A DNA stretch of 32,000 nucleotides from contig CP126532.1 of NCBI GenBank assembly GCA_030167145.1, positions 1,590,001 to 1,622,000 on the forward strand. Reading direction: 5' to 3'. The position numbers were made by a program, and so were the translations under genes. This document shows positions 19,486 to 32,000 of this stretch, one piece after another; the first letter of the stretch is position 1; each line of letters starts with the position of its first letter. This DNA comes from Ktedonobacterales bacterium (GTDB lineage Bacteria > Chloroflexota > Ktedonobacteria > Ktedonobacterales > JADMIN01). The notes under the pieces are model-generated. The model was given only the letters and a program-made list of their open reading frames with translations, had not been told where the DNA came from and did not search any database.

Positions 19486-22400
19486 GTGATCGCCACAACG
19501 CGACCAAACCGGCAAACCAGCGTATCGGTTTCCGCCTGGAAGTTCGAGGCGCCACGGCTGCCCGATGCGCTGCTGCCACGGCCCCATTTGACGGACCGGC
19601 TTGAGCGCTGCCTCGGACGGAAGCGTGCCAGCGGCGATGTGTTCTTGCTCAGCGCGCCCGCAGGCTATGGCAAGACGACGGCGCTGGCACAATGGGCGAA
19701 GCGGACGCCGATGCCTGTCGTCTGGTATCACCTGGATGCCAGCGATGATGATCTGGTGATCTTCCTGAGTGGTCTCATGGAGGCGCTGCGTGCGCGTCTG
19801 CCGCAGAGCGAGTGGGAGGTGGAGCGGCTGCTCACGCGGACGCATCGAGGGGCGCTCTCGGCGCTGGATGCGCGCCGGGCCACCGCGCTGTTGATTCGCG
19901 ATATCGCGCGCAATGTGCAGAAGCCGCTGGCGCTGGCGCTGACGGGCATCTCTGAGTTGAGCGAGAATAGCGCCGCGCAGGCGACACTCAATACTTTGCT
20001 GGCGCGCCCTGCCGACCATCTGCGTCTGGTGATCGAAGCGCGAGAGGTTCCGCGCATTCGTGTGGCGCAACTGCTGACGCAACACCGACTTGATGGTATG
20101 GGAGCCGATGATCTGTGCCTGCGCGACGACGAGTTGGAGGCGCTGCTGGACCTGATCGGCATCTCCGCCGATGCCAACTACATCGAGTCGCTGCGTGCGT
20201 TGAGTGGTGGATGGATTACTGGGGTACTGCTGGCTACGGGAGGGTTGCTGCCGAGCTTTCTGCCAGCGGGAGCAGCGGATTTCGACCGCGAGCGGGTCAT
20301 CGAGTATCTGGCGGCGGAGGTGCTGGAGCAGCTTCCGGCAGAGTTGTATGGTTTCGCACGGGAAGCCGCCGTGTTGAGCGCGATGACTGCGCCGCTCTGC
20401 GATGACCTGCTGGGTATGAGTGAGGCCCGCGAGTACCTCAGCGCGCTTGAGCGGCGCACAGGCTTCGTGACGCGCATCGGGCGGCGTCCGCAAGAACCCA
20501 TATACCGTTTCCAGCCATTGCTGCGCCAGGCGTTGCTCGAGCGGATGGACGAGGAGCCGGGGGGGCCGAAGCGCCGCTGTACACTGCATGCGCGTGCCGG
20601 GGAGTTGCTCGAAGCGCTGGGTGATTACGAAGAAGCGGTGCGGCAATATGCCGAGGCGGAGCGCTTTGACCGTGTCCTCGCTCTGATCGAGGCCAGGCGC
20701 AGTTCGCTGTTGCGCGCGGGCAGAGGCGCAACGCTGGTACGCTGGCTGGATCTGTTGCCCGAAGCGGTGCGCGCCGACCACCCCGATCTGCATGTGCTCG
20801 TGGCTGAACTCTACCGCCAGACGGGACGCATTGCCGAGGCAGAGGCGGCCAACGCGCGGGCGTGCGCGCTGATCTTGCCGGATGCCAAGGCGCATCCCAC
20901 GCTGGCGGCGCGGGCGCTCTACATGCGGGCTGTGCTGGCGTCCACGCACAATGACTATGCCGCCGCACGGGAAGATTGCGAGGCGGCGCTACGCTACGCG
21001 CCGCTGGACGCCGATGAACTGCGGGTGCAGATTGGCTTCCAGATTGCCAGCATCCTGGGCGGGGCGGATCCCATCGCGGCGCTGGCGGAATTGAGTAGCA
21101 TCGAAGAGCGGTGCGCGCGCCTGCGCGACCTGTGGGCGCTGGCCCGGTTGCACTATCTGCGCTCTGGCCTGCTGATGACGCGCGGCGTGTATCGTGAGGC
21201 AGAGCAAGCCGCATTGGCGTCGTTGCGCTACGCGCAAGAGGGCAACGATGAGGTGGATGCGATCATCAGCCGCTTGAATCTGGGCGCGATCAAGAATCTT
21301 CAGCGGCAGCCAGCGGCAGCGCGGGAACACTTTGAGATTGCCAGCGCCCAGGCCGAAGCGGCAGGCTACGCGCTGGGCCGTGTGTATGCGCTGATGAACC
21401 TTGCCGAACTGGAATTGAACACGGGGCAGATCGAGCGCGCGGTTGAGGTATATGCGGTGGCTCAGGCTGCCGCCGATGAGGCCGGCGATACGCACCTGTG
21501 TACGGTCATTGCGTGGGGCATGGGCTATGCGCTGACGCTGCTGGGGCGCGCCGATGAGGCTTGCCAATTGCTGACGGATCGGATGGAGGCCAGCGACGCG
21601 GGTATGCGCGTGGAGGGTTGGACCGCGCTGATGACGGCGCGCGGATTCGCGCAACAGCGCGCGGGTGATGTCGCGTCGGCGATCATGTCGTTCGAGCAGG
21701 CAATCGCGCGGGCAGAGGCGGGCGGAGCCGCGACCAAGGTGGCTATCGCACGACTGCATCTGGCCGCCGCATTGCTGACGCAGCGCGACAAGAGCGGCGC
21801 AGCGGTGGCGCTGGGTGCGGCGCTGGATGGCATCGCCGGGCCGGAGGGCGTGCCACAGGTGAGTTTCGAGGCGCGCCAACTGCCAGAGTTGCGCCCGCTG
21901 CTGAGCAAGTCGCGCCACCCCGCTGCCGTAGCATTGCTGACTGAGCTTGCGCCTGATGCGGAGGCCGCAACGCAGGTGCTCGCCGGTCGCACGTCTGGCG
22001 CTGAGGTCTCCGCAATGGGAGCCTTGCGCGTCTTTGCGCTGGGTGAGGCGCGGGTCTTCGCTGGCACAAACCGGATCACCCGCTGGCGCATGCCACATGC
22101 GCGTGAACTGCTCTACTTCTTGCTGGACCGGGGTGAGCCGATGCGCAAGGAGGTGATTCTCGAAACGTTCTGGCCGGATAAAGACCCGGAGAGTACCGAT
22201 AACACCTTCAGGCAGGCGCGCTTCCGCCTGAAGCAGGCCTTGGGGCAGGAATGCCTGGTGCAGGAGGGCGGGCGCTGGCGGCTGACGGTGGACTGCTGGT
22301 ATGACGTGCATGAGTTCGAGCGGCTGGCGACCGAAGGCGAGCGGCTGGCGACCGAAGGGCAGCTTGCCGCTGCCGTTACCGCGCTGAAACAGGCGCTGAC

Positions 22401-22773
22401 CTATTGGACCGGCGATTTTCTGGATGACCTGTATTCCGATTGGGTGGTCGAGCGGCGCGACACCTTGCGGCGGCGCTATCTGGCAAGCCTGGACCTGCTC
22501 GCCGATCTGGAGGCGCGGCTGGGCCAGCACGAAGATGCCGCGCAACGCTACTTTCTGATCCTCGAAGCCGAACCCTATCGCGAGAGCGCACATCGCGGCC
22601 TGATGCGCTATTATCAGCGGCGCGGCGAGTTGACCCAGGCCGTACAGCAGTTCGCGCGCTGCTACACGGTGATTAAGCAGGAAGTGGGGGCTGCGCCATC
22701 GCGCGAGACGGTCCAGTTGTATCAGACGATCCGCTCGCGGCTGGACGGCAAAGGCGTGGCTGTGCGTGCGTGA
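19486..22773 (+). CDS. STAND-type (MalT-like) NTPase / TPR regulator with C-terminal SARP module (OmpR-type wHTH + BTAD)
   Basis: GTG start with AAGGAG 8 nt upstream. Walker A LLSAPAGYGKTT (about 19654-19680), a long TPR-like helical repeat region, then from about 22021 LRVFALGEARVF...RELLYFLLDRGEPMRKEVILETFWP (wHTH) and YWTGDFLDDLYSDWVVERRDTLRRRYL...AHRGLMRYYQRRGELTQAVQQF (BTAD). Confidence 0.9.
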   Translation: MIATTRPNRQTSVSVSAWKFEAPRLPDALLPRPHLTDRLERCLGRKRASGDVFLLSAPAGYGKTTALAQWAKRTPMPVVWYHLDASDDDLVIFLSGLMEALRARLPQSEWEVERLLTRTHRGALSALDARRATALLIRDIARNVQKPLALALTGISELSENSAAQATLNTLLARPADHLRLVIEAREVPRIRVAQLLTQHRLDGMGADDLCLRDDELEALLDLIGISADANYIESLRALSGGWITGVLLATGGLLPSFLPAGAADFDRERVIEYLAAEVLEQLPAELYGFAREAAVLSAMTAPLCDDLLGMSEAREYLSALERRTGFVTRIGRRPQEPIYRFQPLLRQALLERMDEEPGGPKRRCTLHARAGELLEALGDYEEAVRQYAEAERFDRVLALIEARRSSLLRAGRGATLVRWLDLLPEAVRADHPDLHVLVAELYRQTGRIAEAEAANARACALILPDAKAHPTLAARALYMRAVLASTHNDYAAAREDCEAALRYAPLDADELRVQIGFQIASILGGADPIAALAELSSIEERCARLRDLWALARLHYLRSGLLMTRGVYREAEQAALASLRYAQEGNDEVDAIISRLNLGAIKNLQRQPAAAREHFEIASAQAEAAGYALGRVYALMNLAELELNTGQIERAVEVYAVAQAAADEAGDTHLCTVIAWGMGYALTLLGRADEACQLLTDRMEASDAGMRVEGWTALMTARGFAQQRAGDVASAIMSFEQAIARAEAGGAATKVAIARLHLAAALLTQRDKSGAAVALGAALDGIAGPEGVPQVSFEARQLPELRPLLSKSRHPAAVALLTELAPDAEAATQVLAGRTSGAEVSAMGALRVFALGEARVFAGTNRITRWRMPHARELLYFLLDRGEPMRKEVILETFWPDKDPESTDNTFRQARFRLKQALGQECLVQEGGRWRLTVDCWYDVHEFERLATEGERLATEGQLAAAVTALKQALTYWTGDFLDDLYSDWVVERRDTLRRRYLASLDLLADLEARLGQHEDAAQRYFLILEAEPYRESAHRGLMRYYQRRGELTQAVQQFARCYTVIKQEVGAAPSRETVQLYQTIRSRLDGKGVAVRA
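22318..22359 (+). repeat. In-frame 21-bp tandem duplication (ERLATEG x2) inside the regulator gene
   Basis: GAGCGGCTGGCGACCGAAGGC (22318-22338) is followed directly by GAGCGGCTGGCGACCGAAGGG (22339-22359), 20 of 21 identical and codon-aligned. Confidence 0.95.
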
Positions 22774-22798
22774 CGGGCAGATGTCGCATGTGGCATGG

Positions 22799-23479
22799 CT
22801 ATTCGTCTGGCGCGTCTTCATCCCTATCGGTTCCATCCGCGCCGTGCGTTTCTTCCCAGAGCTGGCGCGTGACGGTGCGGGCGACGGTATAGCTGAAGCC
22901 GCGCCGAAGTAGGAATTGTCCGAGCTTGGTGCGGAATGCTTCATAGTCGAGGTTAGCGAGGGCGCGCAGCCGCTGACGACCAGCGGCGAGGGCCAGCTCT
23001 TCATCCTGGTCGGGGTCAGTTGCCGCTGCAACGGTCTCGCGGTCCACGCCGCGCTGGCGTAGCTCCTGGCCGAGGGCGCGGGCAGAGCGGGGGCTGAAAC
23101 GTTCGCGGTTCTCCACCCAGAAGGCGGCGAAGTCCTGGTCGTTGAGCATGTTGAGGTCGGCAAGGCGGGTGAGGACACGCTCGACGGCATCGGCGTCTGG
23201 TGGCGGGGTGTTGCGGCGCGGGGCCAGCAAACGGCGGCGCACTTCGGCGCGGCTGCGTGGGCGCGGCGCGAGGAAGCGTAGGGCGGCGTCGAAGAGTTTG
23301 CGCTCATCCTCATTCGCTTGCAGCCGTTCCACTGCCGCTTCATCTACTTCATCGCCGACGGCTATTCCTTCGGCGACGAGCAACGCGCCGTCCAGCGCGA
23401 AGGCGAAGCGGCCATCGAGATACAGGTTGTAGCGGCCCGGACGCCGCTCCTGGGGCTCCAATGCGGTGATCTTTGCCAT
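22799..23479 (-). CDS. recX: RecX family regulatory protein
   Basis: 226 aa. KITALEPQERRPGRYNLYLDGRFAFAL, FLAPRPRSRAEVRRRL, LNDQDFAAFWVENR and the repeated three-helix pattern with LLRRGFSYTVA are typical of RecX. Confidence 0.88.
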   Translation of the reverse strand: MAKITALEPQERRPGRYNLYLDGRFAFALDGALLVAEGIAVGDEVDEAAVERLQANEDERKLFDAALRFLAPRPRSRAEVRRRLLAPRRNTPPPDADAVERVLTRLADLNMLNDQDFAAFWVENRERFSPRSARALGQELRQRGVDRETVAAATDPDQDEELALAAGRQRLRALANLDYEAFRTKLGQFLLRRGFSYTVARTVTRQLWEETHGADGTDRDEDAPDE

Positions 23480-23516
23480 AGGCCACTATTCTCCGTGCAT
23501 GAGATGAATGCGGTAG

Positions 23517-24428
23517 TCAGCGCCGCTGGACGCGCGTGAGCAGGCGATAGAGGCGCTTGGCGAGAGGCGTGAGCAGCGGGATGGTAAGGATGCGGCCAGC
23601 CAGGGCGGCGCGAATCAGGCGGAGCCAAGTGAGCAGGCTGATGAGGCCGAAGAGCGCGCCGAGGACAAGGATAGCCAGCCCAGCCACGACGTTGAAGCGC
23701 AGGTCCGGGGTGATGCTGCCCGCGCCGATCAGCACGAGCCAGAAGGCGATCTGGGCGAGGAGCAGCGCGGCGAAGAAGATGAGGGCGAGCGCGGCGTGCG
23801 CGCGGATGAAGTGGTTGCGCCGCTCGCGAATGAGCAGCACGAGGGCGGGCACGATGGGAAAGGCATATGCGAGCGCGGCCAGCACACGTGGGTTATGCTG
23901 GCGGCCTGGATGCGGGGCCATATGCTGGCTGCTGGCGGGCGCAGGGGCAGGCGATGGCGCGGCGGCGTGCGTGCGCGTTGGGGCGACGGGCGCGGACATA
24001 GGGGGTGCTGGCGGCGTGGGGGCAATGCGAGGTGTCGGTTTGGCTGATGGCTTTGCCGCGGATGCTTTGGGTGCTGCTGTGTTCGCTGTGGTGGGGCCAG
24101 GATAGACACCGGTGTATTTGGGGCGCGGTGGGGCAGCCGGGCGTGAGGCGCTGGCGCTGGATTGGCGGGACGCGGACGGCGTGGTGGGACGGGATGTGCT
24201 GGCGTTGCCTTGTGGAGACACGGGTGGTGTGGGCAATGTTAACGTCGCGGGCTGCGGCTCTGGCTGGCTCAGTTCCAGCGGCGGCTGGGTGGGAAGCTGA
24301 GCGGACGGCTGAGCGGACGATTGGGCGCGCGAGTGGTTGGCGTTGCGTTGGGGTGTAGCCTGGCGCGCACTACGGGTAGTGCGGCGGCGTGGGTTGCTGG
24401 AGTGGTGGCGCTGCGTACCGCTCGGCAT
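23517..24428 (-). CDS. Pro/Ser/Ala-rich membrane protein with DUF4870-like C-terminal domain
   Basis: ATG 24428 has AGGAG just upstream and overlaps the upstream gene by 59 nt. About 170 aa of low complexity, then LAALAYAFPIVPALVLLIRERRNHFIRAHAALALIFFAALLL plus further TM segments. The DUF4870-like ER-N-F-R-HA motif is recalled from memory. Confidence 0.6.
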   Translation of the reverse strand: MPSGTQRHHSSNPRRRTTRSARQATPQRNANHSRAQSSAQPSAQLPTQPPLELSQPEPQPATLTLPTPPVSPQGNASTSRPTTPSASRQSSASASRPAAPPRPKYTGVYPGPTTANTAAPKASAAKPSAKPTPRIAPTPPAPPMSAPVAPTRTHAAAPSPAPAPASSQHMAPHPGRQHNPRVLAALAYAFPIVPALVLLIRERRNHFIRAHAALALIFFAALLLAQIAFWLVLIGAGSITPDLRFNVVAGLAILVLGALFGLISLLTWLRLIRAALAGRILTIPLLTPLAKRLYRLLTRVQRR

Positions 24429-25140
24429 AAGCTCCTACAATCGGCAGATGGAGATAATGGCCGGTCCAGGCGGCGATCATCGCAAAGAGCCAGATACCGG
24501 GAATGACCAGAATGCCCGCAATCCACGCAAGTCCGTTGCCAAGCGTGCCAAAGAAGGTCCAGTGGGTGGCGGTGGTGAGATCGAGGCAGAGCGCCCGCAG
24601 GATATAGACGAGCACGCCGAAGACGGTGAGCACGCTGGTGAGCAAGACGGACTGCATGGCGTGGAAGCGGACGTAGCGGTTGGTGCGTTCGTTGAAGTAG
24701 ACGAGCAGACCGGAGAGCCACCAGAAGAGGTAGCTGGCACCGGCGGCGGTGTTGGCGGTGAAGGTGATGGTGGTCGGACCCCAGGATTGCGCGACCTGCC
24801 AGGGGACGTGGGTGCGGATGGGTGACGGCGCGGCTAGCGGCGGTGCGGCTAGCGGTGGCGACGGCATGCGGGGCATGGCGCGGTTCGGCAACCAGGGCGC
24901 GGACATGGGCGGCGGTGGCGGGGTGGCATCCTGCAGGGTGCGCGCGTTCGGATCATTCGCCACGCTGGCGGATTGCACTGGGCCGCTGAGGCGCTCCGCG
25001 TGGGGGCGGGCGTCGAAGACGGTCTCTTGCGCGTCGGGCGAGGCTTCGTCGGAGACGAATGCGCTGTGCCCGCTGTCACTCTGGCTATTGGTTGGTTTCA
25101 GTTCCATTGCTCCGCCCCCTCCCTGAACACTGCCCATCAT
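24370..25140 (-). CDS. Pro-rich membrane protein with DUF4870-like C-terminal domain
   Basis: Start is ambiguous: GTG 25161, ATG 25140 or 25137 directly after AAGGAGG, or ATG 25107. C-terminal GASYLFWWLSGLLVYFNERTNRYVRFHAMQSVLLTSVL plus 2-3 further TM segments. Paralogous in layout to 23517-24428. Confidence 0.6.
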   Translation of the reverse strand: MMGSVQGGGGAMELKPTNSQSDSGHSAFVSDEASPDAQETVFDARPHAERLSGPVQSASVANDPNARTLQDATPPPPPMSAPWLPNRAMPRMPSPPLAAPPLAAPSPIRTHVPWQVAQSWGPTTITFTANTAAGASYLFWWLSGLLVYFNERTNRYVRFHAMQSVLLTSVLTVFGVLVYILRALCLDLTTATHWTFFGTLGNGLAWIAGILVIPGIWLFAMIAAWTGHYLHLPIVGAYAERYAAPPLQQPTPPHYP

Positions 25141-25167
25141 CCTCCTTAGACGAGCGACCACTGGCGT

Positions 25168-26031
25168 TTAGCCACCAACATAGCGCAAGTATTCATCGGC
25201 GAGTGCGCTGAACTGCTTGTGGGGGCCGTTGCCGCCGAATTTCTGGCGCAGCGATGGCATTGGCTCTTCGACATCGGCTGCCTCGGCGACCTCCACCGCT
25301 TCGGTGATGATGGTGTTGAAGATCGGCGGATGGATGCCGGGGATGGCGTCGCGGCGCATGCTGATGACGGTCTGCTTGTGCAGGCGGCTGGTGGGGCGAT
25401 AGCGCGAGACGACGATGCCCAGGCCGAAGATTTCGTGCTGAGCGCGCAGGGCGAAGTCGGCCATGCGGTCGAGCACGAGGGGAACGCCGAGAGTGGAGAG
25501 GATGTCGGGCACCACGGGGATCAGGAAGTAGCGGCTGATGGCGATGCCGTTGAGGGTGATGACGCCCAGGTTTGGCGGGCAGTCTATCAGCACGTGGTCG
25601 TAGTGCGGAAGCACATCGCGCAGGGCTTCGCGCAGGGCATAGACAGGCCCGGAGCGGAAGGTGTCCAGGTCGGCGATTTTGGTGATTTTATCCTGGATGC
25701 GATGCAGGCGAATGCTCGCGGGGAGCAGATCCAGGCCAGGGACGCCGCCCGCGACATTGGAGACGCGGGTCATGATGGCTTCTTGGGCGGAGAAGAGACG
25801 GGTGTTGTCAAGCTGATCTTTGAAGAGTTGATAGAGTGTTTGCCCGCTCTGATCGCGCTCACGCCAGCGGCGCTCTGTGACCATGGCAATGGTGGCGTTG
25901 GTTTGTGGGTCCAGGTCAATGACGAGGACACGTTTGGAGTGTTCGCCCGCCAGATAGTGCGCCAGCGCGACGGTGAGTGTGGTCTTGCCTACGCCGCCCT
26001 TGAGGTTGATGATGCTCGTTACGACTGCCAT
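25168..26031 (-). CDS. ParA/MinD-family (deviant Walker A) ATPase, orphan
   Basis: Start taken at ATG 26031 (MAVVTSIINLKGGVGKTT); the track start is GTG 26070. KGGVGKTT, VLVIDLDPQTNAT and VLIDCPPNLG match ParA/Soj. No ParB-like gene is recognisable nearby. Confidence 0.88.
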   Translation of the reverse strand: MAVVTSIINLKGGVGKTTLTVALAHYLAGEHSKRVLVIDLDPQTNATIAMVTERRWRERDQSGQTLYQLFKDQLDNTRLFSAQEAIMTRVSNVAGGVPGLDLLPASIRLHRIQDKITKIADLDTFRSGPVYALREALRDVLPHYDHVLIDCPPNLGVITLNGIAISRYFLIPVVPDILSTLGVPLVLDRMADFALRAQHEIFGLGIVVSRYRPTSRLHKQTVISMRRDAIPGIHPPIFNTIITEAVEVAEAADVEEPMPSLRQKFGGNGPHKQFSALADEYLRYVGG

Positions 26032-26140
26032 CCCCCGCAACCCTCCAGTATAACGGGTTTCCCCGCTCACGTTCTCTATGCTATGTCGGTCAGGATACGT
26101 GCTCTACATGTATAACGTCTACCTCGACATTGAGTACAGT

Positions 26141-27547
26141 TCATCCTACCGAAGATGCGCGCTGGTGTCCAGTCTGTGGGACTTGCGCGGCTTTGGGCAG
26201 CCCACGGATGGGGGTGCGCTGATCGTCTATGTCCTCGAGCGCGCGGCCCAGGGCGAAGAGGTTATCCAGGTTGTTGGCGGGCAGGAAATCATCAATGTAG
26301 GGCAGGGCGGCACGCATGCCCGCGGTGACGGGGCGGTAGTCGTCTTGCCCCAGCAGCGGATTGAGCCAGATGAGCCGGTGGCAGTTGCGTTGCAGGCGGG
26401 CCATTTCTTCGCCAAGGATGCGCACATCGCCGCGATCCCAGCCGTCGCTGATGATGAGGACGACAGCGCCACGCCCCAGCACGCGCCGCGCCCAGCGGAA
26501 GTTGAAGGTGCGGAGCGAGTCGCCGATGCGAGTGCCGCCGGACCAATCTTGCACGGTGCGGGTGACGTCGCGGATGGCTTCGTCTACGTCGCGGCGGGCG
26601 AGTTGGCGGGTGATGCGGGTGAGGCGCGTGCCAAAGACGAAGGTTTCGACGTTGCCGAGGCCGTTGGCGACGGTGTGGGTGAAATGGAGTAGCAGCCGCG
26701 AGTAGAGGCTCATGGAGCCGCTGATGTCGCAGATGATGACGAGTGGGCGCGGCTTGCGGCGGATGGTGCGGCGGGCGAGTTCGACTGGCTCGCCAGCGGT
26801 ACGCAGGCTACGGCGGAAGGTGCGGCGGAGATCGAGGCGTTTGCCGTGGCGAGCGGGGCGGAGCCGCCGGGTGTTGCGTTCGCCGAGGCGCCAGCGCTTG
26901 CGTTCCATCAGTTCGCGCGCTTCTTGCAGTTCGTCCCAGGTGAATTCTTCGAAGTCTTTGTGGCGCAGCACTTCGTCGTGGCTGAAGGTATGGGAGCGGT
27001 CGCTGTCGTCGGCGTTGTCGTCGCGTTTGCTGCGGCGGGCTTCGGCGAGCCGCGAGGCGGGGTGGCGCTGATGTTCGTTGAGGCGCGTGCCAGCGCGCTT
27101 GTGGGTGTGCTGGTCGTCGGGTGGCTTGCGATGGGCGGGCAGGGCGAGTGGACGGCCACGGCGGGCGTTTTCGGGTTCAGGACGATTGCCGCCGTCTTTG
27201 CCGCTGCTTTGGGGTTGCCAGAAATAGGCGAAGGCGGCGTCGAAGATGGCTTCTTGCTCGTGCTTGGAGACGAGAGAGACTTTGAGGAAGGTGTAGAACT
27301 CGTCGCGGCGGCCCACATCTATTAGCGGGAGGCTGTGGGCAACTTCGACGACACGACCGGGTCCGACATCTAGCCCCAGCTCCCAGAGAAGCCGGGCGAA
27401 ATCTACGATGCGAGCGAGAAGGAGTTCGCCCTGGGCACGGTCGAGCGCGGTGAGGGGCCGCGCGTCCGCGAGGCGGGCAGCAGTGGTGGTGGCTGGCTCG
27501 CTATCGGGTGGCATGCTGGGCTGCGTTGCTGGATGGTCGTTGGTCAT
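26141..27547 (-). CDS. CoxE-type von Willebrand factor A (VWA) domain protein
   Basis: 468 aa. CoxE-like middle region (FSHDEVLRHKDFEEFTWDELQEA...RRLRPARHGKRLDLRRTFRRSLRTAGEP) and a VWA domain with MIDAS VIICDISGSMS, GGTRIG, VVLIISDGWDRG, IWLNPLLG. GGAG lies 6 nt upstream of the ATG. Confidence 0.9.
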   Translation of the reverse strand: MTNDHPATQPSMPPDSEPATTTAARLADARPLTALDRAQGELLLARIVDFARLLWELGLDVGPGRVVEVAHSLPLIDVGRRDEFYTFLKVSLVSKHEQEAIFDAAFAYFWQPQSSGKDGGNRPEPENARRGRPLALPAHRKPPDDQHTHKRAGTRLNEHQRHPASRLAEARRSKRDDNADDSDRSHTFSHDEVLRHKDFEEFTWDELQEARELMERKRWRLGERNTRRLRPARHGKRLDLRRTFRRSLRTAGEPVELARRTIRRKPRPLVIICDISGSMSLYSRLLLHFTHTVANGLGNVETFVFGTRLTRITRQLARRDVDEAIRDVTRTVQDWSGGTRIGDSLRTFNFRWARRVLGRGAVVLIISDGWDRGDVRILGEEMARLQRNCHRLIWLNPLLGQDDYRPVTAGMRAALPYIDDFLPANNLDNLFALGRALEDIDDQRTPIRGLPKAAQVPQTGHQRASSVG

Positions 27548-27612
27548 GCGGACTCCGGCTGGGATTGCGATTGGGCGGTGGCGCGGGCAGAGCGGCGTGC
27601 CACACCGGCTTC

Positions 27613-27621
27613 ACGATACCA
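27613..27621 (-). promoter_or_regulatory. Candidate extended -10 element TGGTATCGT upstream of the VWA gene
   Basis: Minus-strand TGgTATCGT about 66 nt upstream of ATG 27547, inside a 178-nt intergenic gap. Confidence 0.3.
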
Positions 27622-27725
27622 CCCACGCCATGCGGAAGGGAAGGGCGCAGATGGAACGAGTGGCACGGTGCGGGGGACAGATGCAGTCAGATGGGGGCAG
27701 GAGTTGTTGGAAGGCGGCAACGTGC

Positions 27726-28826
27726 TTAGGGGGATTTGGCGTGCGGTGGTAGGGGGACGGTGACGGAGACGGGCAGCGGCGCGGAGGGGTCATCCCATTC
27801 GGCGCGCTGGGTCAGGCGGATGAGCAGGACGAACATGGCGAGGTCGAGCAGGAGCATGAGTTGGGCGTCTATGAGGGAGGTGCGGAGGAAGAGGATGGGC
27901 GCGAGGAGCATGAAGTAGGTGATGACGCCGCTGGCTAGGGCGAGGCGCTGGGGGGCGCCCCAGGGTGCGAGGGTGGACCACTGGCGGATACGAATGGTGA
28001 GGGCAATGACGAGGGCGAGGAGTAGCGCGATGGGGATGAGGGCAAGAGGAATGAGGACGGGGAGAAGCCAGACGATGATGAAGACGGCGAGGGTGGCGCC
28101 AAAGCCGATGAGGCGCAACTGCCAGAGATGCGGGGCGGCGCGCAGGGCAGGGCGAGGCGCGGGCAGGCGCAGGCGGTGGCTGAGGATGATGAGCGCGACC
28201 ATGAGCAGGGCAGCGCCAAGGTAGGGGATGGCGGGCGGGTGGGGATAGCTCTTGTCTTTCGTATGGAAGCCCCAGGAGATTGCGCCCAGGATGGAGACGG
28301 CGGCGAGGAGGAGGAAGAAGAGCAGGACGCCGCCGGTGCGGAGCCAGGGGCGGCTGGCGACGCGAGGGAAGAGGGTGTCTACGATGACGATGGGAATGGC
28401 GATGCTGACGACAGCGTGGAAGATGGTGAGTTCACCGGCCCAGAGCCAGTTGACGCCCCAGGCGCGGCCATAGACGCCGAGCAGACCAACGCCAGCCTGG
28501 GGGTTGAACCAGGTGTTGGTGATGAGGGCTTCTTCGAGGATGCCGTAGGCCGCGCCGAGGAGGAAGAGGCTGAACCAGGGGAGCTGGCGGCGGCGGACGA
28601 TCTCGCGGATGAGGATGGCGCCGGAGCCGTAGAGGGCGGCAGCCAGGGGGAAGCTGATGGGGTCGAGGATGATTTTGGTGGGCGGGGTGGAGGTGGAGAA
28701 GATTTCGCCGAGAATGGGCGCGAGCAGGAAGAGGGTGAGCGCGGCGGGCCAGACGCTGGCCGAGGCTCGACGCTGCCGTGCGGAGGTGGGCGCGGCGGTG
28801 AGCGGTGGGTTGGGCGTCGGGTACAT
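27726..28826 (-). CDS. Hypothetical polytopic membrane protein
   Basis: Track start (TTG 28913) trimmed to ATG 28826 (GAGGAG 10 nt upstream; MYPTPNPP). At least 8 hydrophobic segments, with conserved-looking YGSGAILIREIVRR and GAAYGILEEALITNTWF. No family recognised. Confidence 0.6.
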   Translation of the reverse strand: MYPTPNPPLTAAPTSARQRRASASVWPAALTLFLLAPILGEIFSTSTPPTKIILDPISFPLAAALYGSGAILIREIVRRRQLPWFSLFLLGAAYGILEEALITNTWFNPQAGVGLLGVYGRAWGVNWLWAGELTIFHAVVSIAIPIVIVDTLFPRVASRPWLRTGGVLLFFLLLAAVSILGAISWGFHTKDKSYPHPPAIPYLGAALLMVALIILSHRLRLPAPRPALRAAPHLWQLRLIGFGATLAVFIIVWLLPVLIPLALIPIALLLALVIALTIRIRQWSTLAPWGAPQRLALASGVITYFMLLAPILFLRTSLIDAQLMLLLDLAMFVLLIRLTQRAEWDDPSAPLPVSVTVPLPPHAKSP

Positions 28827-28879
28827 GTGCCAGGCTCTCCTCGTTGGCTGATGTCTGGGTGGATGATGATGCGCGTGTG

Positions 28880-28913
28880 CTTGTAGCATGGCGATGTTGG
28901 GCGATGCTGTCAA
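28880..28913 (-). promoter_or_regulatory. Candidate promoter of the membrane-protein gene (perfect -35 TTGACA)
   Basis: Minus-strand TTGACA at 28913-28908. The -10 options are CATGCT with a 17-nt spacer (28890-28885) or TGcTACAAG (28885-28880). The TTG that the track used as a start codon is part of this -35 hexamer. Confidence 0.35.
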
Positions 28914-28980
28914 GCCTTTTGTGCGGATTGTGGATTGATTGGTTTGGATTTGGGCGAGCGGACGGTTGAAATCGCGCAGA

Positions 28981-29000
28981 GGGCGAGGCAGGCCTCGCCC
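28981..29000 (-). terminator. GC-rich hairpin about 80 nt downstream of the repeat-ORF stop (weak terminator candidate)
   Basis: GGGCGAGG-CAGG-CCTCGCCC forms a perfect 8-bp stem with a 4-nt loop. The downstream minus-strand tail TCTGCGCGATTTC is only weakly U-rich. Confidence 0.3.
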
Positions 29001-29079
29001 CTACACATGCTGTGGGTTGGGAGTCGGGGCAGGTTCAAAGGTAGGTTGGAAAAGTGCGTCAAGGCTGGAGCGCAGGCGA

Positions 29080-30684
29080 TCAGGCGCTGCGCTTGCGGCG
29101 GGTGGCGGTGGCTGATGGGGCGGGTGACTCGCTGCCCCAGAGTGAGGTTTGGGTGGGAGTGGCCGGAGTGGCCGGAGTGGCCGGTTTTTGATGACGGCGG
29201 ACAGGAATGTCCGCCCCACCGGGTGCAGTGGCCGGAGTGGCCGGTTTGCGCGGTTGGGTGGGGGTGGGTGACGGGAGATGGCGGGAAGTGACGGAAGATT
29301 TTTCGCCGTTTTCGCCGCGAATCGCAGTGGCCGGAGTTGCCGATTTGGCCGGAGTGGCCGTTGTGGCGGCTGCCGGAGTTGCCGATTCTGCCGATTTGCG
29401 CGAAGGGGTGTGGGGAGATGACCGGAATCGGCTGGAGGTGTCGGGAGAATTTTCGCCGTTTTCGCCGCGAATTCGCCGATGTGGAGGTGCCGGAGTTGCC
29501 GATTCTGCCGATTTTTGAGTTTGCGCGCTGAGCACGGTGGGTGATGTGGCTGGTTCTCGGCCTGAAGCGCTGGGGGTAATCCCTCTCGTACGACTTCGGC
29601 GCTGGGTGGGACGGGCGGAAGATTTTTCGCCGTTTTCGCCGCGAATCGCAGAGATCGCAGTGGCTGATGCGGCAGGAGTTGCAGTTGGCGATTTCACCTT
29701 TGTTGAAGTGGCCGCTGTGGCCGCAGTTGGCAATTCGGGAGAGTTGGTTGGAGTTGCCGATTTTGCCGATTTTGCCGATTTTCGCGCACTGGCAGACAGG
29801 AATGTCTGCTCTACCGGAGTGGCCGATTTGGCCGGTTTTTGATGTTGGATGGTGCGCGGGTTGGGCGGTAGAGCAGCCTCTCGGCCTGAAGGACGCAGGT
29901 AATCCCGTTTGCGCGCGGATTGTGGTGGGCGAGCAGTGTCGGACGCTGCTGGAGTGGCCGTTTTCGCTGTTTTCGCCGTCGTTTGGGGCGCCATAGGAGT
30001 GGCCGGAGTGGCCGATTTGGCCGGTTTTGCAGTTGGCGGTGTGGCTGGAGTCACAGTTGCCGATTTTGCCGATTTTGCAGTTACCGGAATGGCCGTAGTT
30101 GCAGTGACATGAGTTGCCGATTTTGCCGATTTCGGGGTGGCGGGAGTGGCGGGAGTTGCCGATTTTGCCGAATGCACAGCGGCCGATTTGGGCGATTTTG
30201 TTGTTGTGGCTGGGACGGTGGTACGGCGGGTGGGAAGGCGGTCGGGTTGTTCGGCGTCTGGGGTGAGCCAGCCAGAGACGCGCTTGATGGGGTCGCCTGC
30301 GGCGATGCCGATGAGGAAGTAGTGCGGCTTGAGGTGGTCGTTTGGCTCAAGGCGCAGAGTGGGAATCGGTGGGGCGATGGGGGCGGCGAGGTGGTTGCCG
30401 TTTTTGCCGTTTTTGGCGCGTTGGTGGCGCATGGAGCTGTCGGTGGCGCTGGGGTCGGTGGCATGCGCGCGGCGGGTGCGGCGGCGCGGAGGTGTGTTGC
30501 TCTCATTGGCGGCTCCGTTGCCAGAAAGCGTGGGGAGCGCTGAGGCGAGGAGGGTAGGATGTAGCTCGCAGGTGGTTGGCTCGTAGCCGGTGCGGTCGCG
30601 GTAGCGCTGGGCGGCGTTGGCGATTTTCAGGGCGATGGGGCGGCGAATATCGTCGTCGTACCAGAGCAATCCAGAGATAATCAT
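29080..30684 (-). CDS. Hypothetical protein: non-repetitive N-terminal domain plus long basic Lys/Ser/Ala/Thr/Pro repeat tail
   Basis: ATG 30684. N-terminal MIISGLLWYDDDIRRPIALKIANAAQRYRDRTGYEPTTCELHP and LRLEPNDHLKPHYFLIGIAAGDPIKRVSGWL look globular. From about residue 150 there are KSA(K/E)SATP and IRGENGEKSS repeats encoded by the nucleotide repeat tract. The coding status of the tail is uncertain. Confidence 0.5.
   Translation of the reverse strand: MIISGLLWYDDDIRRPIALKIANAAQRYRDRTGYEPTTCELHPTLLASALPTLSGNGAANESNTPPRRRTRRAHATDPSATDSSMRHQRAKNGKNGNHLAAPIAPPIPTLRLEPNDHLKPHYFLIGIAAGDPIKRVSGWLTPDAEQPDRLPTRRTTVPATTTKSPKSAAVHSAKSATPATPATPKSAKSATHVTATTAIPVTAKSAKSATVTPATPPTAKPAKSATPATPMAPQTTAKTAKTATPAASDTARPPQSARKRDYLRPSGREAALPPNPRTIQHQKPAKSATPVEQTFLSASARKSAKSAKSATPTNSPELPTAATAATSTKVKSPTATPAASATAISAIRGENGEKSSARPTQRRSRTRGITPSASGREPATSPTVLSAQTQKSAESATPAPPHRRIRGENGENSPDTSSRFRSSPHTPSRKSAESATPAAATTATPAKSATPATAIRGENGEKSSVTSRHLPSPTPTQPRKPATPATAPGGADIPVRRHQKPATPATPATPTQTSLWGSESPAPSATATRRKRSA
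29196..29215. repeat. Hairpin motif copy 1: GGCGGACA-GGAA-TGTCCGCC
   Basis: Perfect 8-bp stem with a GGAA loop on the + strand (UUCC on the mRNA-sense strand). Confidence 0.85.
29791..29810. repeat. Hairpin motif copy 2: GGCAGACA-GGAA-TGTCTGCT
   Basis: Same hairpin, with G:C changed to A:T at stem position 4 and G:T at the outermost pair. The loop is identical. Confidence 0.85.
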
Positions 30685-31077
30685 GGGACTGTATCCTGCC
30701 GTTCGGTGATGGATTCGGATGGGCGCGCTATTTAGAACTTCCGTTCAATGGACTGTAATCCGGTTGTGGGGTGGTGTCAAGGGCGCTGCTCAAGATTGGC
30801 GACGAGTTTTGGGGCTGGCTAGTAGCGATGGGCGAGGGGGGTGGGACTTCGGGGTGCGGGGAGAGAGTGGAGCGAGCAGATGGGAATGGGCAGGATGGAG
30901 GGTGGACAGCGGAGGGTGGACAGTGGAGGGAGATGATGAGGTGGACATGGGACGGGGGAGTGGAATACGCTGGGGGGCAAGGAGATGCGGTGTCGCCACG
31001 TAGCATACGACGCGAGAGATGGGGCGTTAGGATGCTGTGCGGAGGTGGCGGAACGGCGCTGGCGAAGCTCGCCGAAG

Positions 31078-31115
31078 CTCAGCATAGGGGAGCATTCGGC
31101 ATGTATTATGCTGAG
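31078..31115 (+). promoter_or_regulatory. Perfect 9-bp inverted repeat CTCAGCATA-N20-TATGCTGAG upstream of the PAS sensor gene
   Basis: Arms at 31078-31086 and 31107-31115. The spacer contains GGGGAG (31087-31092) and ATG 31101. Candidate operator or 5' stem-loop. Confidence 0.4.
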
Positions 31116-31216
31116 ATCTATGCCCCGACTGGCCATGTGGAAATCGGGCTGGTAGTGTGCCAGACGAACGAGCGACACCAGGTTGCAACACGCGAAAGCG
31201 GGGGGCGAGAAGCGGC

Positions 31217-32000
31217 ATGGATGAGACAGACGATGCTCAGATAGTAGTTGAGACATGCCATCTAGCTGGTGGGATGGCAGGGGGGACTGAGCAGCACGGT
31301 AGCAATGGAGTGGGGCCATTGGACGCAGAGGCGCGCGCACGGCGAGCGGAAGAGCAGCTTGAGGCGTTTTGGAATCGGTATCAGGCGCTGGCGCAGACGT
31401 TGGCGCAGATTCTGTGGACGACTCCGGCTGATGGTCTGGTGGATGATATGCCGATGTGGCGGGCGTTCACGGGGCAGAGTGTGGAGCAGGTACGGGGATG
31501 GAACTGGCTGGAGGCGGTTCACCCGGAGGATCGGGCGCGAGTGAAGCGTTTGTGGAAGCGTGCGGTGATGACGGCGACGCAGACGAACCTGGAGTATCGT
31601 GTGCGGCGGCGCGATGGGGAATATCGGTGGTTTCTGGATCGTGGGACGCCGGTGCTGGAGGCTGATGGGCGCGTGCGCGAGTGGATTGGCTTTTGTACGG
31701 ATATTACGGAGCATAAGCAGGCGGAAGAAGAGCGGGCGCGGCTGTTGATGCGCGAGCAGGTGGCGCGGATGGAGGCGGAGGAGGCGCGGACAGCGGCGGC
31801 GATAGGCGAGCGTGAGTCGGAGGCAGTGTTCGAGGCGATGACGGATGGGGTGGTGGTGCTGGATCGGGTGGGGCAGATCATCCGCATGAATCGTGCGGGA
31901 ATCAAGCTGGTGGGGCTGGATACGCTGGCCAATCCGGGGGCGGACTTTTATGAGTTGCCGGTGGCGGAACGCGCGGCGCGCATTGAGATGCGGGATGCGC
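31217..32000 (+). CDS. PAS-domain sensor protein (probable histidine kinase or other signalling protein), 3' end outside window
   Basis: This frame is not in the track because it has no stop before the window end. It is open from 31115, with ATG 31217 (alternative ATG 31274). My translation gives LWTTPADGLVDDMPMWRAFTGQSVEQVRGWNWLEAVHPEDRARV...EYRVRRRDGEYRWFLDRGTPVLEADGRVREWIGFCTDITEHKQAEE (PAS), a coiled-coil linker, then a second PAS start (EAVFEAMTDGVVVLDRVGQIIRMNRAG). Confidence 0.8.
   Translation, partial: MDETDDAQIVVETCHLAGGMAGGTEQHGSNGVGPLDAEARARRAEEQLEAFWNRYQALAQTLAQILWTTPADGLVDDMPMWRAFTGQSVEQVRGWNWLEAVHPEDRARVKRLWKRAVMTATQTNLEYRVRRRDGEYRWFLDRGTPVLEADGRVREWIGFCTDITEHKQAEEERARLLMREQVARMEAEEARTAAAIGERESEAVFEAMTDGVVVLDRVGQIIRMNRAGIKLVGLDTLANPGADFYELPVAERAARIEMRDA

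Follow-up and report, generated by a model that had tools for sequence, protein, structure and literature searches.

The gene at 29080–30684 and its family

The window (WIN) analysed here, a 32-kb stretch of contig CP126532.1 from a Ktedonobacterales bacterium, contained a 534-aa open reading frame (ORF) that ran from ATG to stop at 29080–30684 of the minus strand in the ORF list. Features are on the minus strand unless stated otherwise; L numbers denote related genomic, metagenome or viral loci, and P0104 denotes a protein at a second locus of the same genome. Comparison with its relatives shows the ORF to be a genuine gene, which encodes a member of an uncharacterised family of Chloroflexota proteins. 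The product consisted of an N-terminal 'GLLWYDDD' domain and a disordered, polycationic tail of ~390 aa. The subject of this report is this gene, and above all the mosaic of short repeats that makes up its tail DNA.

Relatives of the N-terminal domain were found at 37 genomic loci of Ktedonobacterales, Anaerolineae and other Chloroflexota, and in 129 cluster representatives at E≤1e-3. The orthologue start codons aligned with the ATG of the 534-aa ORF. Residues W8, Y9, D10, D11, D12, K20, and C39 were invariant in an alignment of 28 sequences, and all of them were carried by the first half of the domain (aa 1–52; 30529–30684), where the pLDDT was >90. The second half (aa 108–140; 30265–30363), defined by the alignment and AlphaFold2, included strands b3 and b4 ('LRLEPNDHLKPHYFLIGI'). 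The two halves were separated by a lineage-specific loop insertion of 55 residues (aa 53–107; 30364–30528), which was disordered (pLDDT 50–57) and missing from all 27 aligned relatives. This loop held a copy of the element CGGCAAAAACGGCAAC (30394–30409), read as AKNGKNGN, which the sequence-only reading had overlooked. AlphaFold2 with a 55-sequence alignment gave a confident b-a-b-a-[loop]-b-b fold with pLDDT >90 over aa 1–50 and 110–140, and the N-terminal domain is, in this model, a small alpha/beta fold with an invariant WYDDD motif. The WYDDD domain had no match in Pfam, NCBIfam, PHROG, PDB sequences or PDB folds.

The Anaerolineae relatives were composed of the domain alone (70–100 aa), whereas the Ktedonobacterales relatives were usually tailed (200–500 aa), with domain-only forms in L006, L009, and L018. 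The gene order in Ktedonobacterales was greA, the WYDDD gene, purB, and two trkA genes. In Anaerolineae loci L020–L037, an ftsK/spoIIIE motor gene and an unknown gene of ~137 aa preceded the stand-alone WYDDD gene, and holA (DNA polymerase III delta) and a DUF6391 gene lay 3' of it on the opposite strand. The orthologue at L014:10001–11219 was present as two overlapping ORFs of 305 and 201 aa, both of which clustered with the family; the split suggests a frameshift within the tail, whether real or due to an assembly error.

The tail and its terminal motifs

The disordered tail (aa 141–534; 29083–30264) had a net charge of ~+40, and Ala, Thr, Pro, and Ser made up 63% of its residues from aa 161 onward. 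A positive net charge, from +17 to +63, was common to all long-tailed relatives. Apart from two terminal motifs, the tails could not be aligned between orthologues. The first motif, QTSLWG (aa 512–517; 29134–29151), contained the only Trp residue of the tail and resembled a beta-clamp-binding motif. Q..LW was found in 16 of the 22 long-tailed relatives and supplied the sole tail Trp in 15 of those 16; it was absent from the short Anaerolineae relatives. The second motif was the conserved basic C-terminus, RRKRSA-COOH (29083–29100), which closed the peptide as ...TATRRKRSA; the pattern [RK]..[RK]..[ST]A was present in 18/22 long-tailed relatives.

The retention of QxxLW and the basic C-terminus at the distal end of an otherwise unalignable tail implies that translation in this frame runs through the entire tail. 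The comparison among relatives thus shows the tail to be, in all likelihood, translated in the ORF frame and under protein-level selection. The object of this presumed selection is the composition, charge, reading frame, and two terminal motifs of the tail, and not its internal sequence. The conserved C-terminal motifs speak against the earlier suggestion that the region is an array that merely happens to stay open.

Repeat mosaic in the tail DNA

The sequence-only reading had described the tail DNA as a mosaic of short repeats, and this mosaic was real, both as tandems and as motif counts. The repeats spanned 29140–30210, far above chance, and Tandem Repeats Finder listed numerous perfect tandems of 9-nt units from 29156 to 30156. 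In the window, AAATCGGCMRMWYY gave 11 matches against 0.02 expected, GGCGAAAACGGCGAAAA gave three exact copies and one copy with one mismatch against 0.02 expected, and the hairpin GCRGACATTCCTGTCYGC gave two matches against 0.01 expected. Such counts refer to the 32-kb stretch; ~37 kb of the source genome was readable for word searches. Every motif copy lay on one strand and, within the window, inside the 534-aa ORF.

The mosaic of 9-nt units (29147–30210) was formed by AAATCGGCA/C (read KSA), GCCACTCCG (ATP), and the 16-nt word CGGCMRAAWCGGCMAC, all in a single frame. On the plus strand, the 9-nt units were TTGCCGATT (read KSA), GGAGTGGCC (ATP), and TTTTCGCCG (GEN/GEK). Repeat-family analysis gave 16 copies of a 33-nt family and segmental repeats of 78–96 nt spaced 150 and 324 nt apart. 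The same analysis gave no inverted repeats in the region; the 18-nt hairpin is palindromic, and the dominant 16-nt word is a direct 9-nt repeat.

Three higher-order units of 90 nt (29274–29363, 29424–29513, and 29598–29687) each contained ATTCGCGGCGAAAACGGCGAAAA, read as IRGENGEK. Their spacings of 150 and 174 nt and their single frame, as proposed earlier, were reproduced. When shifted by one base, the IRGENGEK core reads FAAKTAKN, and the GENGEK units may, from their sequence, be related to the AKTAK/KSAKSA units through a shift in phase. The fourth, degenerate copy of the GENGEK word noted before, GGCGAAAACAGCGAAAA (29958–29978), was indeed read as TAKTAKTA and was a KSA-type unit resembling the GENGEK word in another frame.

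Two further elements were present in two copies each. Hairpin copy 1, GCGGACA-TTCC-TGTCCGC (29197–29214; −20.1 kcal/mol with flanks), and copy 2, GCAGACA-TTCC-TGTCTGC (29792–29809), differed by a paired G-C to A-T change, and both folded better than shuffled sequences (z = −3.5 and −2.2). The second element was a two-part module, found as GGGATTACC-N6-CTTCAGGCCGAGA at 29879–29906 (KRDYLRPSGRE) and as GGGATTACC-N7-CTTCAGGCCGAGA at 29555–29583 (RGITPSASGRE), the first half of the latter being frame-shifted. The GGGATTACC modules did not fold in the same kind of test. Rfam gave nothing at the gathering threshold in the window, and at E≤10 on 28700–30800 it gave one chance match (E=5). A phase-variable contingency locus was ruled out as an explanation of the tandems, since slippage of 9-nt units changes length and not frame.

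Reading frames of the repeats

Of the exact repeat pairs of at least 12 nt, 56/57 were in frame, as were 33/33 of those of at least 14 nt, and the spacings within families were nearly always multiples of 3 or 9. Out-of-frame reuse of motifs, to which the earlier reading had given weight, is the exception. The cases it had named, with three motif families each read in two frames, were confirmed. The hairpin was read as ADIPVRR in copy 1 and as QTFLSAS in copy 2; the copies lay 595 nt apart (1 mod 3), and copy 1 differed from copy 2 by +4 nt on the upstream side and by −1 nt on the downstream side. Similarly, GGGATTACC was read as RDY in one module and as GIT in the other because the spacer between GGGATTACC and CTTCAGGCCGAGA was 6 nt in the one and 7 nt in the other. 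These observations, together with the unalignable tails and the retained terminal motifs, made the earlier option of a rapidly evolving low-complexity tail generated by slippage essentially right.

Other frames over the tail were open, as had been claimed. Over 393 codons, the sense +1 frame was free of stops; the other sense frame contained 4, and the antisense frames 11, 6, and 6. This openness carries little information because the coding strand has just 12.8% T.

Codon use and repeat load among orthologues

The codon usage of the tail was compared with that of nine reference genes of the window. The tail used Lys AAA (93% vs 36%), Thr ACT (52% vs 11%), Ala GCA (32% vs 11%), Glu GAA (77% vs 38%), and Gln CAA (82% vs 31%) far more often than the reference genes. 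This atypical usage of the repeat DNA is probably the reason why the JGI gene caller skipped the 534-aa ORF. In its place, JGI called mini-ORFs of 56, 78, and 52 aa on the plus strand, antisense to it (29361–29531, 29606–29842, and 29954–30112), which are probably artefacts of the repeat DNA. A further JGI call of 47 aa was observed upstream of the ORF at ~31101–31244 (plus strand).

The skipped call and the atypical codons could also be taken to mean that the long ORF is not a functional gene, but a decayed or spurious frame left open by a T-poor strand, or that only the N-terminal domain is made. The equally open sense +1 frame and the domain-only relatives in Anaerolineae and in three Ktedonobacterales loci fit that explanation. 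It is nevertheless highly improbable. The two terminal motifs kept at the far end of unalignable tails require translation of the whole tail, and the atypical codons themselves account for the failure of the gene caller.

Repeated 12-mers covered 42% of the tail DNA in the window, 23% in L005, and 21% in L003, and ≤11% in 12 other orthologues, so that just 3/15 orthologue tails were repeat-rich at the DNA level. The peptide [KE][ST]A[TI] was enriched in just 4/23 tails, and a family-wide protein motif A-[KE]-[ST]-A-T-P was rejected on this count. In all three genomes with DNA available, [KE][ST]A[TI] was encoded by the same words, CGGCA(A/G)AA(T/A)CGGCAAC, and the copies in the L003 tail also carried a ATTCCGGCA prefix. 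The conserved domains of these word-sharing genomes were 38–45% identical.

The same DNA words elsewhere

Copies of the tail words were found between genes at other loci. In L005, the spacer that separates an amidohydrolase gene from a GNAT gene, 7 kb away from the orthologue, held three more copies of CGGCAGAATCGGCAAC. Five metagenome contigs (L047, L065, L067, L080, and L110) contained arrays of two to five copies with flanks of the form (tcag)ATTC-core-CGCC. These arrays were located in spacers by Hsp20, holA, HAD-hydrolase, and DEAD-helicase genes, with Pfam support, and their spacings were often not multiples of three. Variants like ATTCCGGCAAAAACGGCAACCG occurred in the metagenome arrays, and the CGGCAAAAACGGCAAC word of the N-domain loop was also present in the arrays of L047 and L067. 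A further 115 single-copy metagenome matches to the 16-mer had random flanks and mixed G+C content and were treated as chance.

The L065 array (967–1326) was observed with spacings of 42, 42, 72, and 51 nt, all multiples of 3, and with an open frame of 120 codons reading ...IPAESATASASNSQIPAESAT..., which included MAHKFAAESAT. A similar 'MSHVFAAKTAT' was seen directly upstream of the array in L047.

The hairpin was also present elsewhere. An identical copy of hairpin copy 2 (GGGCAGACATTCCTGTCTGCC) was found at L004:1893 in the galK-greA spacer. The form GGCRGACAGGAATGTCYGCCCCACC was multi-copy in IMG/VR contigs (L160, L165–L168, L169, and L172) with a G+C content of 0.55–0.70 and a shared flank, GGTGGGG. 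Of the seven copies in L169 (3378–9544), four lay no more than 50 nt from where a plus-strand ORF ends; two copies were followed by a possible ribosome-binding site and an ATG. The GGCRGACAGGAATGTCYGCCCCACC hairpin seems to be a widespread, undescribed family of intercistronic hairpins. Literature on the hairpin sequence and on Ktedonobacter repeats yielded nothing relevant.

A homology search with the tail in its real frame gave P0104 as the only match, and a decoy search with the five non-coding tail frames, aimed at spurious ORFs that overlie other arrays, found nothing. P0104 (WIG60216.1, OJF49_002964) is encoded on the same 5.07-Mb contig as the window, ~1460 protein accession numbers away. 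It carried GRTFLSAS, RKSAESAT, RGENGEN, AKSAKSAT, KNRPNRPL, KIGRIGN, and RKRDYPRPSGRE, and thus the vocabulary of the tail in all three sense frames. The RKRDYPRPSGRE peptide is the same as that of the module at 29879–29906. Outside the tail, the GENGEK-type and GGGATTACC-type modules were seen just as peptides of P0104.

G+C-rich palindromes of the type CCCCTCTCC..GGGAGAGGGGCTGGGGGTGAGG were common in Ktedonobacterales spacers (L005:18530–18620, L067:870–1140, L002:2585–2720, L004:11604 and 13109, and L010:10765). In L005 and L067, they stood between two copies of CGGCAGAATCGGCAAC, which suggests a composite element. The L003 tail seems to hold one G+C-rich palindrome in frame ('TGEGLGEEVHPSGN').

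The sequence-only reading had held that part of the conservation is at the nucleotide level. The conservation itself was borne out, and its basis differed from that proposed: the words are dispersed in intergenic arrays, in the L003 and L005 tails, and in P0104. It could be argued that the repeated words act in place as DNA or RNA elements, either as sites for a factor that recognises the 16-nt word CGGCARAAWCGGCAAC or as structured hairpins with an effect on mRNA stability or translation, and that the tail is under dual selection, at the nucleotide and the protein level. The 16-nt word was identical in genomes whose conserved domains had diverged to 38–45% identity. In the arrays of L005, L047, L065, L067, and L080, the five whose neighbouring ORFs were examined, it had the same orientation as the ORF read as downstream of it and lay ~80–800 nt upstream of the start of that ORF. 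The paired G-C to A-T change between the two in-ORF hairpins, and their folding relative to shuffles, are of the kind expected for such elements, and 20 further hairpin copies in viral contigs had A-T (10), G-C (4) or G-T (6) at this pair and never A/C. However, ~2 A/C pairs would be expected, and their absence is not significant. Rfam had no matching family, the GGGATTACC modules did not fold, and 12/15 orthologues do without such repeats. The in-frame spacing and the C-terminal motifs can be explained without any function at the DNA level, and we regard dual selection as unlikely.

Sequence past the stop codon

The earlier claim that the mosaic continues past the stop codon was of marginal standing. 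The words GCTCGCCCA and CCACAATCCGC (28923–28959) lay 17 nt apart, were contiguous in the tail at 29915–29934, and were weakly above chance. Local alignment scored no better than shuffles. Two collinear shared words of at least 9 nt were found in just 1/226 control segments. A G+C-rich hairpin, GGGGCGAGGCCTGCCTCGCCC (28981–29001; −22.3 kcal/mol with flanks, z = −3.4), was located ~80 nt past the stop codon. In appearance it resembles a REP element or a terminator, and no T-run followed it. A sequence similar to it, gaggcgaggcttgcctcgcctc, was observed in L001 at ~14600.

Flanking features and the ParA neighbourhood

Upstream of the gene, a sigma-70-like promoter candidate, TTGACA-17-TACAGT (30752–30780), matched the consensus at 10/12 positions in a scan for that consensus only; it lay ~68 nt from the ATG. 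Downstream of the 534-aa ORF was a co-directional cluster (23517–28826) made up, in transcription order, of an AF_0692-like membrane protein gene (PF27245), a VWA CoxE-like gene, and a ParA/MinD ATPase gene (AAA_31). The VWA CoxE-like neighbour corresponded to WIG58757.1. After the ParA-like gene, two ORFs with weak Pfam matches to the WzyE and TIC20 membrane families were observed, with RecX further on in the JGI calls. The scanned ORFs from 20989 to 30684 were all on the minus strand, and the coding strand was C-rich and G-poor over 12 kb and not in the tail alone; the GC skew of the plus strand was strongly positive (0.11–0.42) over 20000–32000 of the window.

The sequence-only reading had also raised an iteron- or centromere-like platform for an orphan ParA. 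Iterons and some plasmid centromeres typically consist of arrays of direct repeats, and the ParA/MinD-family gene (AAA_31, CbiA; 25168–26070) lay ~3 kb downstream. However, the AF_0692-like membrane protein gene and the VWA CoxE gene stood between it and the array, and the ORFs scanned nearby in the window included no recognisable ParB. The synteny was not conserved either, as the orthologues lay between greA and purB in Ktedonobacterales and between ftsK and holA in Anaerolineae. Elsewhere, the same words adjoined Hsp20, holA, helicase, and amidohydrolase genes, in many loci without ParA, and here the array is coding and in frame. An iteron- or parS-type platform for the ParA-like ATPase is therefore left with almost no probability, and the option was unsupported.

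Proposed origin of the tail

The explanation that we consider probable is that the ORF is a genuine gene whose polycationic tail started from dispersed repeats and grew through in-frame 9-nt slippage and the duplication of segments. The homology, frame statistics, codon bias, shared words, and intergenic copies are its observed parts; the steps that connect them are proposed. The tail DNA would have been taken from a lineage stock of short dispersed repeats, here and in at least two other Ktedonobacterales genomes, and the uptake in the other tails may have been independent or ancestral. The stock would comprise the 16-nt word, with its internal period of 9 nt, and the hairpin GGCRGACATTCCTGTCYGCC, and it may also include the GENGEK-type and GGGATTACC-type modules. 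Replication slippage in 9-nt steps and the duplication of segments of 150–324 nt would then have amplified these repeats locally. Frame-breaking events would have been purged, which would account for the near-perfect phasing of the copies, and the survivors would be those that keep the downstream frame, which would account for the compensating indels around the phase-shifted copies.

Several points weigh against this explanation. The JGI gene calls for contig Ga0494333_323 (3300045419) omitted the 534-aa ORF, the exact 534-aa protein was not found in a collection of 15 billion proteins, and the nearest relatives of the N-terminal domain reached just 45–50% identity. In the ~37 kb of readable source genome, the words were confined to the 534-aa ORF, so that dispersal within this genome would rest on P0104 at the level of its protein sequence. 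That elements passed from intergenic arrays into the tail, and not the reverse, is inferred and not established. Finally, the identity of the 16-nt words despite domain identities of ~40% could mean that the word itself is selected.

A related proposal is that the 16-nt word and the GGCRGACATTCCTGTCYGCC hairpin are lineage-wide cis-elements of Ktedonobacterales, bound as DNA or RNA by a dedicated factor, and that the tail of this possibly replisome- or nucleoid-tethered protein captures them repeatedly as coding sequence. We consider this doubtful. If true, the locus would serve as a cis-element array as well as encoding a protein tail, with coding sequence born from intergenic repeats.

Comparison with known systems

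The closest known phenomenon to a tail seeded by dispersed repeats is, by analogy, the in-frame insertion of Rickettsia palindromic elements (RPEs) or miniature inverted-repeat transposable element (MITE)-like repeats into genes. These dispersed intergenic repeats are also inserted in frame in tolerant regions of proteins (PMC10969869). As with RPEs, the words described here stood both between genes and, translated, inside an ORF, the hairpin element was palindromic, and one copy (30394–30409) was located in a surface loop of a folded domain. The same element was found at unrelated sites, intergenic ones included (L004, L005, the metagenome contigs, P0104, L168, and L169). The frame was unbroken, and presence varied among orthologues, the loop being absent from 27 relatives and 3/15 tails being repeat-rich. 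In contrast to RPEs (~100–150 bp), the units here were 16–30 nt long, and the main word lacked palindromic symmetry, being a direct repeat with a 9-nt unit. The copies showed neither terminal inverted repeats nor target-site duplications, and no link to a transposase, no dedicated transposition test having been made. Rather than standing as a single insertion, the copies here, presumably amplified locally by slippage, make up 42% of a 1.2-kb tail.

REP/BIME palindromes and the cyanobacterial STRR sequences are by definition extragenic. The words resembled them as short, lineage-wide repeats clustered in spacers in one orientation to the flanking genes, sometimes combined with G+C-rich hairpins (L005 and L067). 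Unlike REP and STRR sequences, they were extensively coding, and no RAYT-type transposase was identified.

At the protein level, the KPAA repeats of AlgP, which is histone H1-like, and the PAKK tail of mycobacterial HupB are low-complexity basic tails of nucleoid proteins. The present tail is likewise a long, cationic, Ala/Pro/Lys-rich and presumably disordered extension of a small domain, variable in length and sequence. It differed from them in being Thr/Ser-rich, in having Arg about as common as Lys, and in carrying QxxLW and the C-terminal motif. The resemblance to H1/AlgP tails suggested earlier therefore held for composition and charge and not for homology: there was no Pfam or NCBIfam match, and the units were KSA(K/E)SATP, ATP, and GENGEK.

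Beta sliding-clamp motifs are of the QL[SD]LF type, and the tail contained a conserved Q-x-x-L-[FW] in a disordered segment (QTSLWG). In ImuB, the functional beta-clamp motif is 352-QLPLWG-357 (PMC10421592). QTSLWG shares with it the Q-x-x-L-W-G pattern, the disordered location near the C-terminus, and the conservation in relatives, a likeness of pattern only. A link to the clamp would also fit the holA and ftsK genes that adjoin the Anaerolineae relatives. It is speculative that the tail binds nucleic acid, as proposed because it is polycationic, and that QxxLW tethers it to the sliding clamp or to some other partner. Our best guess, held with low confidence, is that the protein may be a nucleoid- or replisome-associated adaptor, in view of the polycationic tail, the Q..LWG pattern, and the ftsK/holA and greA neighbours.

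Significance

The locus is a sequence-level example of a disordered tail that appears to have been built and remodelled from the dispersed short repeats of a genome. The conserved gene that carries it was missed by the JGI caller, and similar genes in repeat-rich genomes are likely to have been missed too. The undescribed intergenic repeat family of Ktedonobacterales is now directly searchable. The WYDDD family is uncharacterised and combines a clamp-binding-like motif with neighbours related to replication and segregation.

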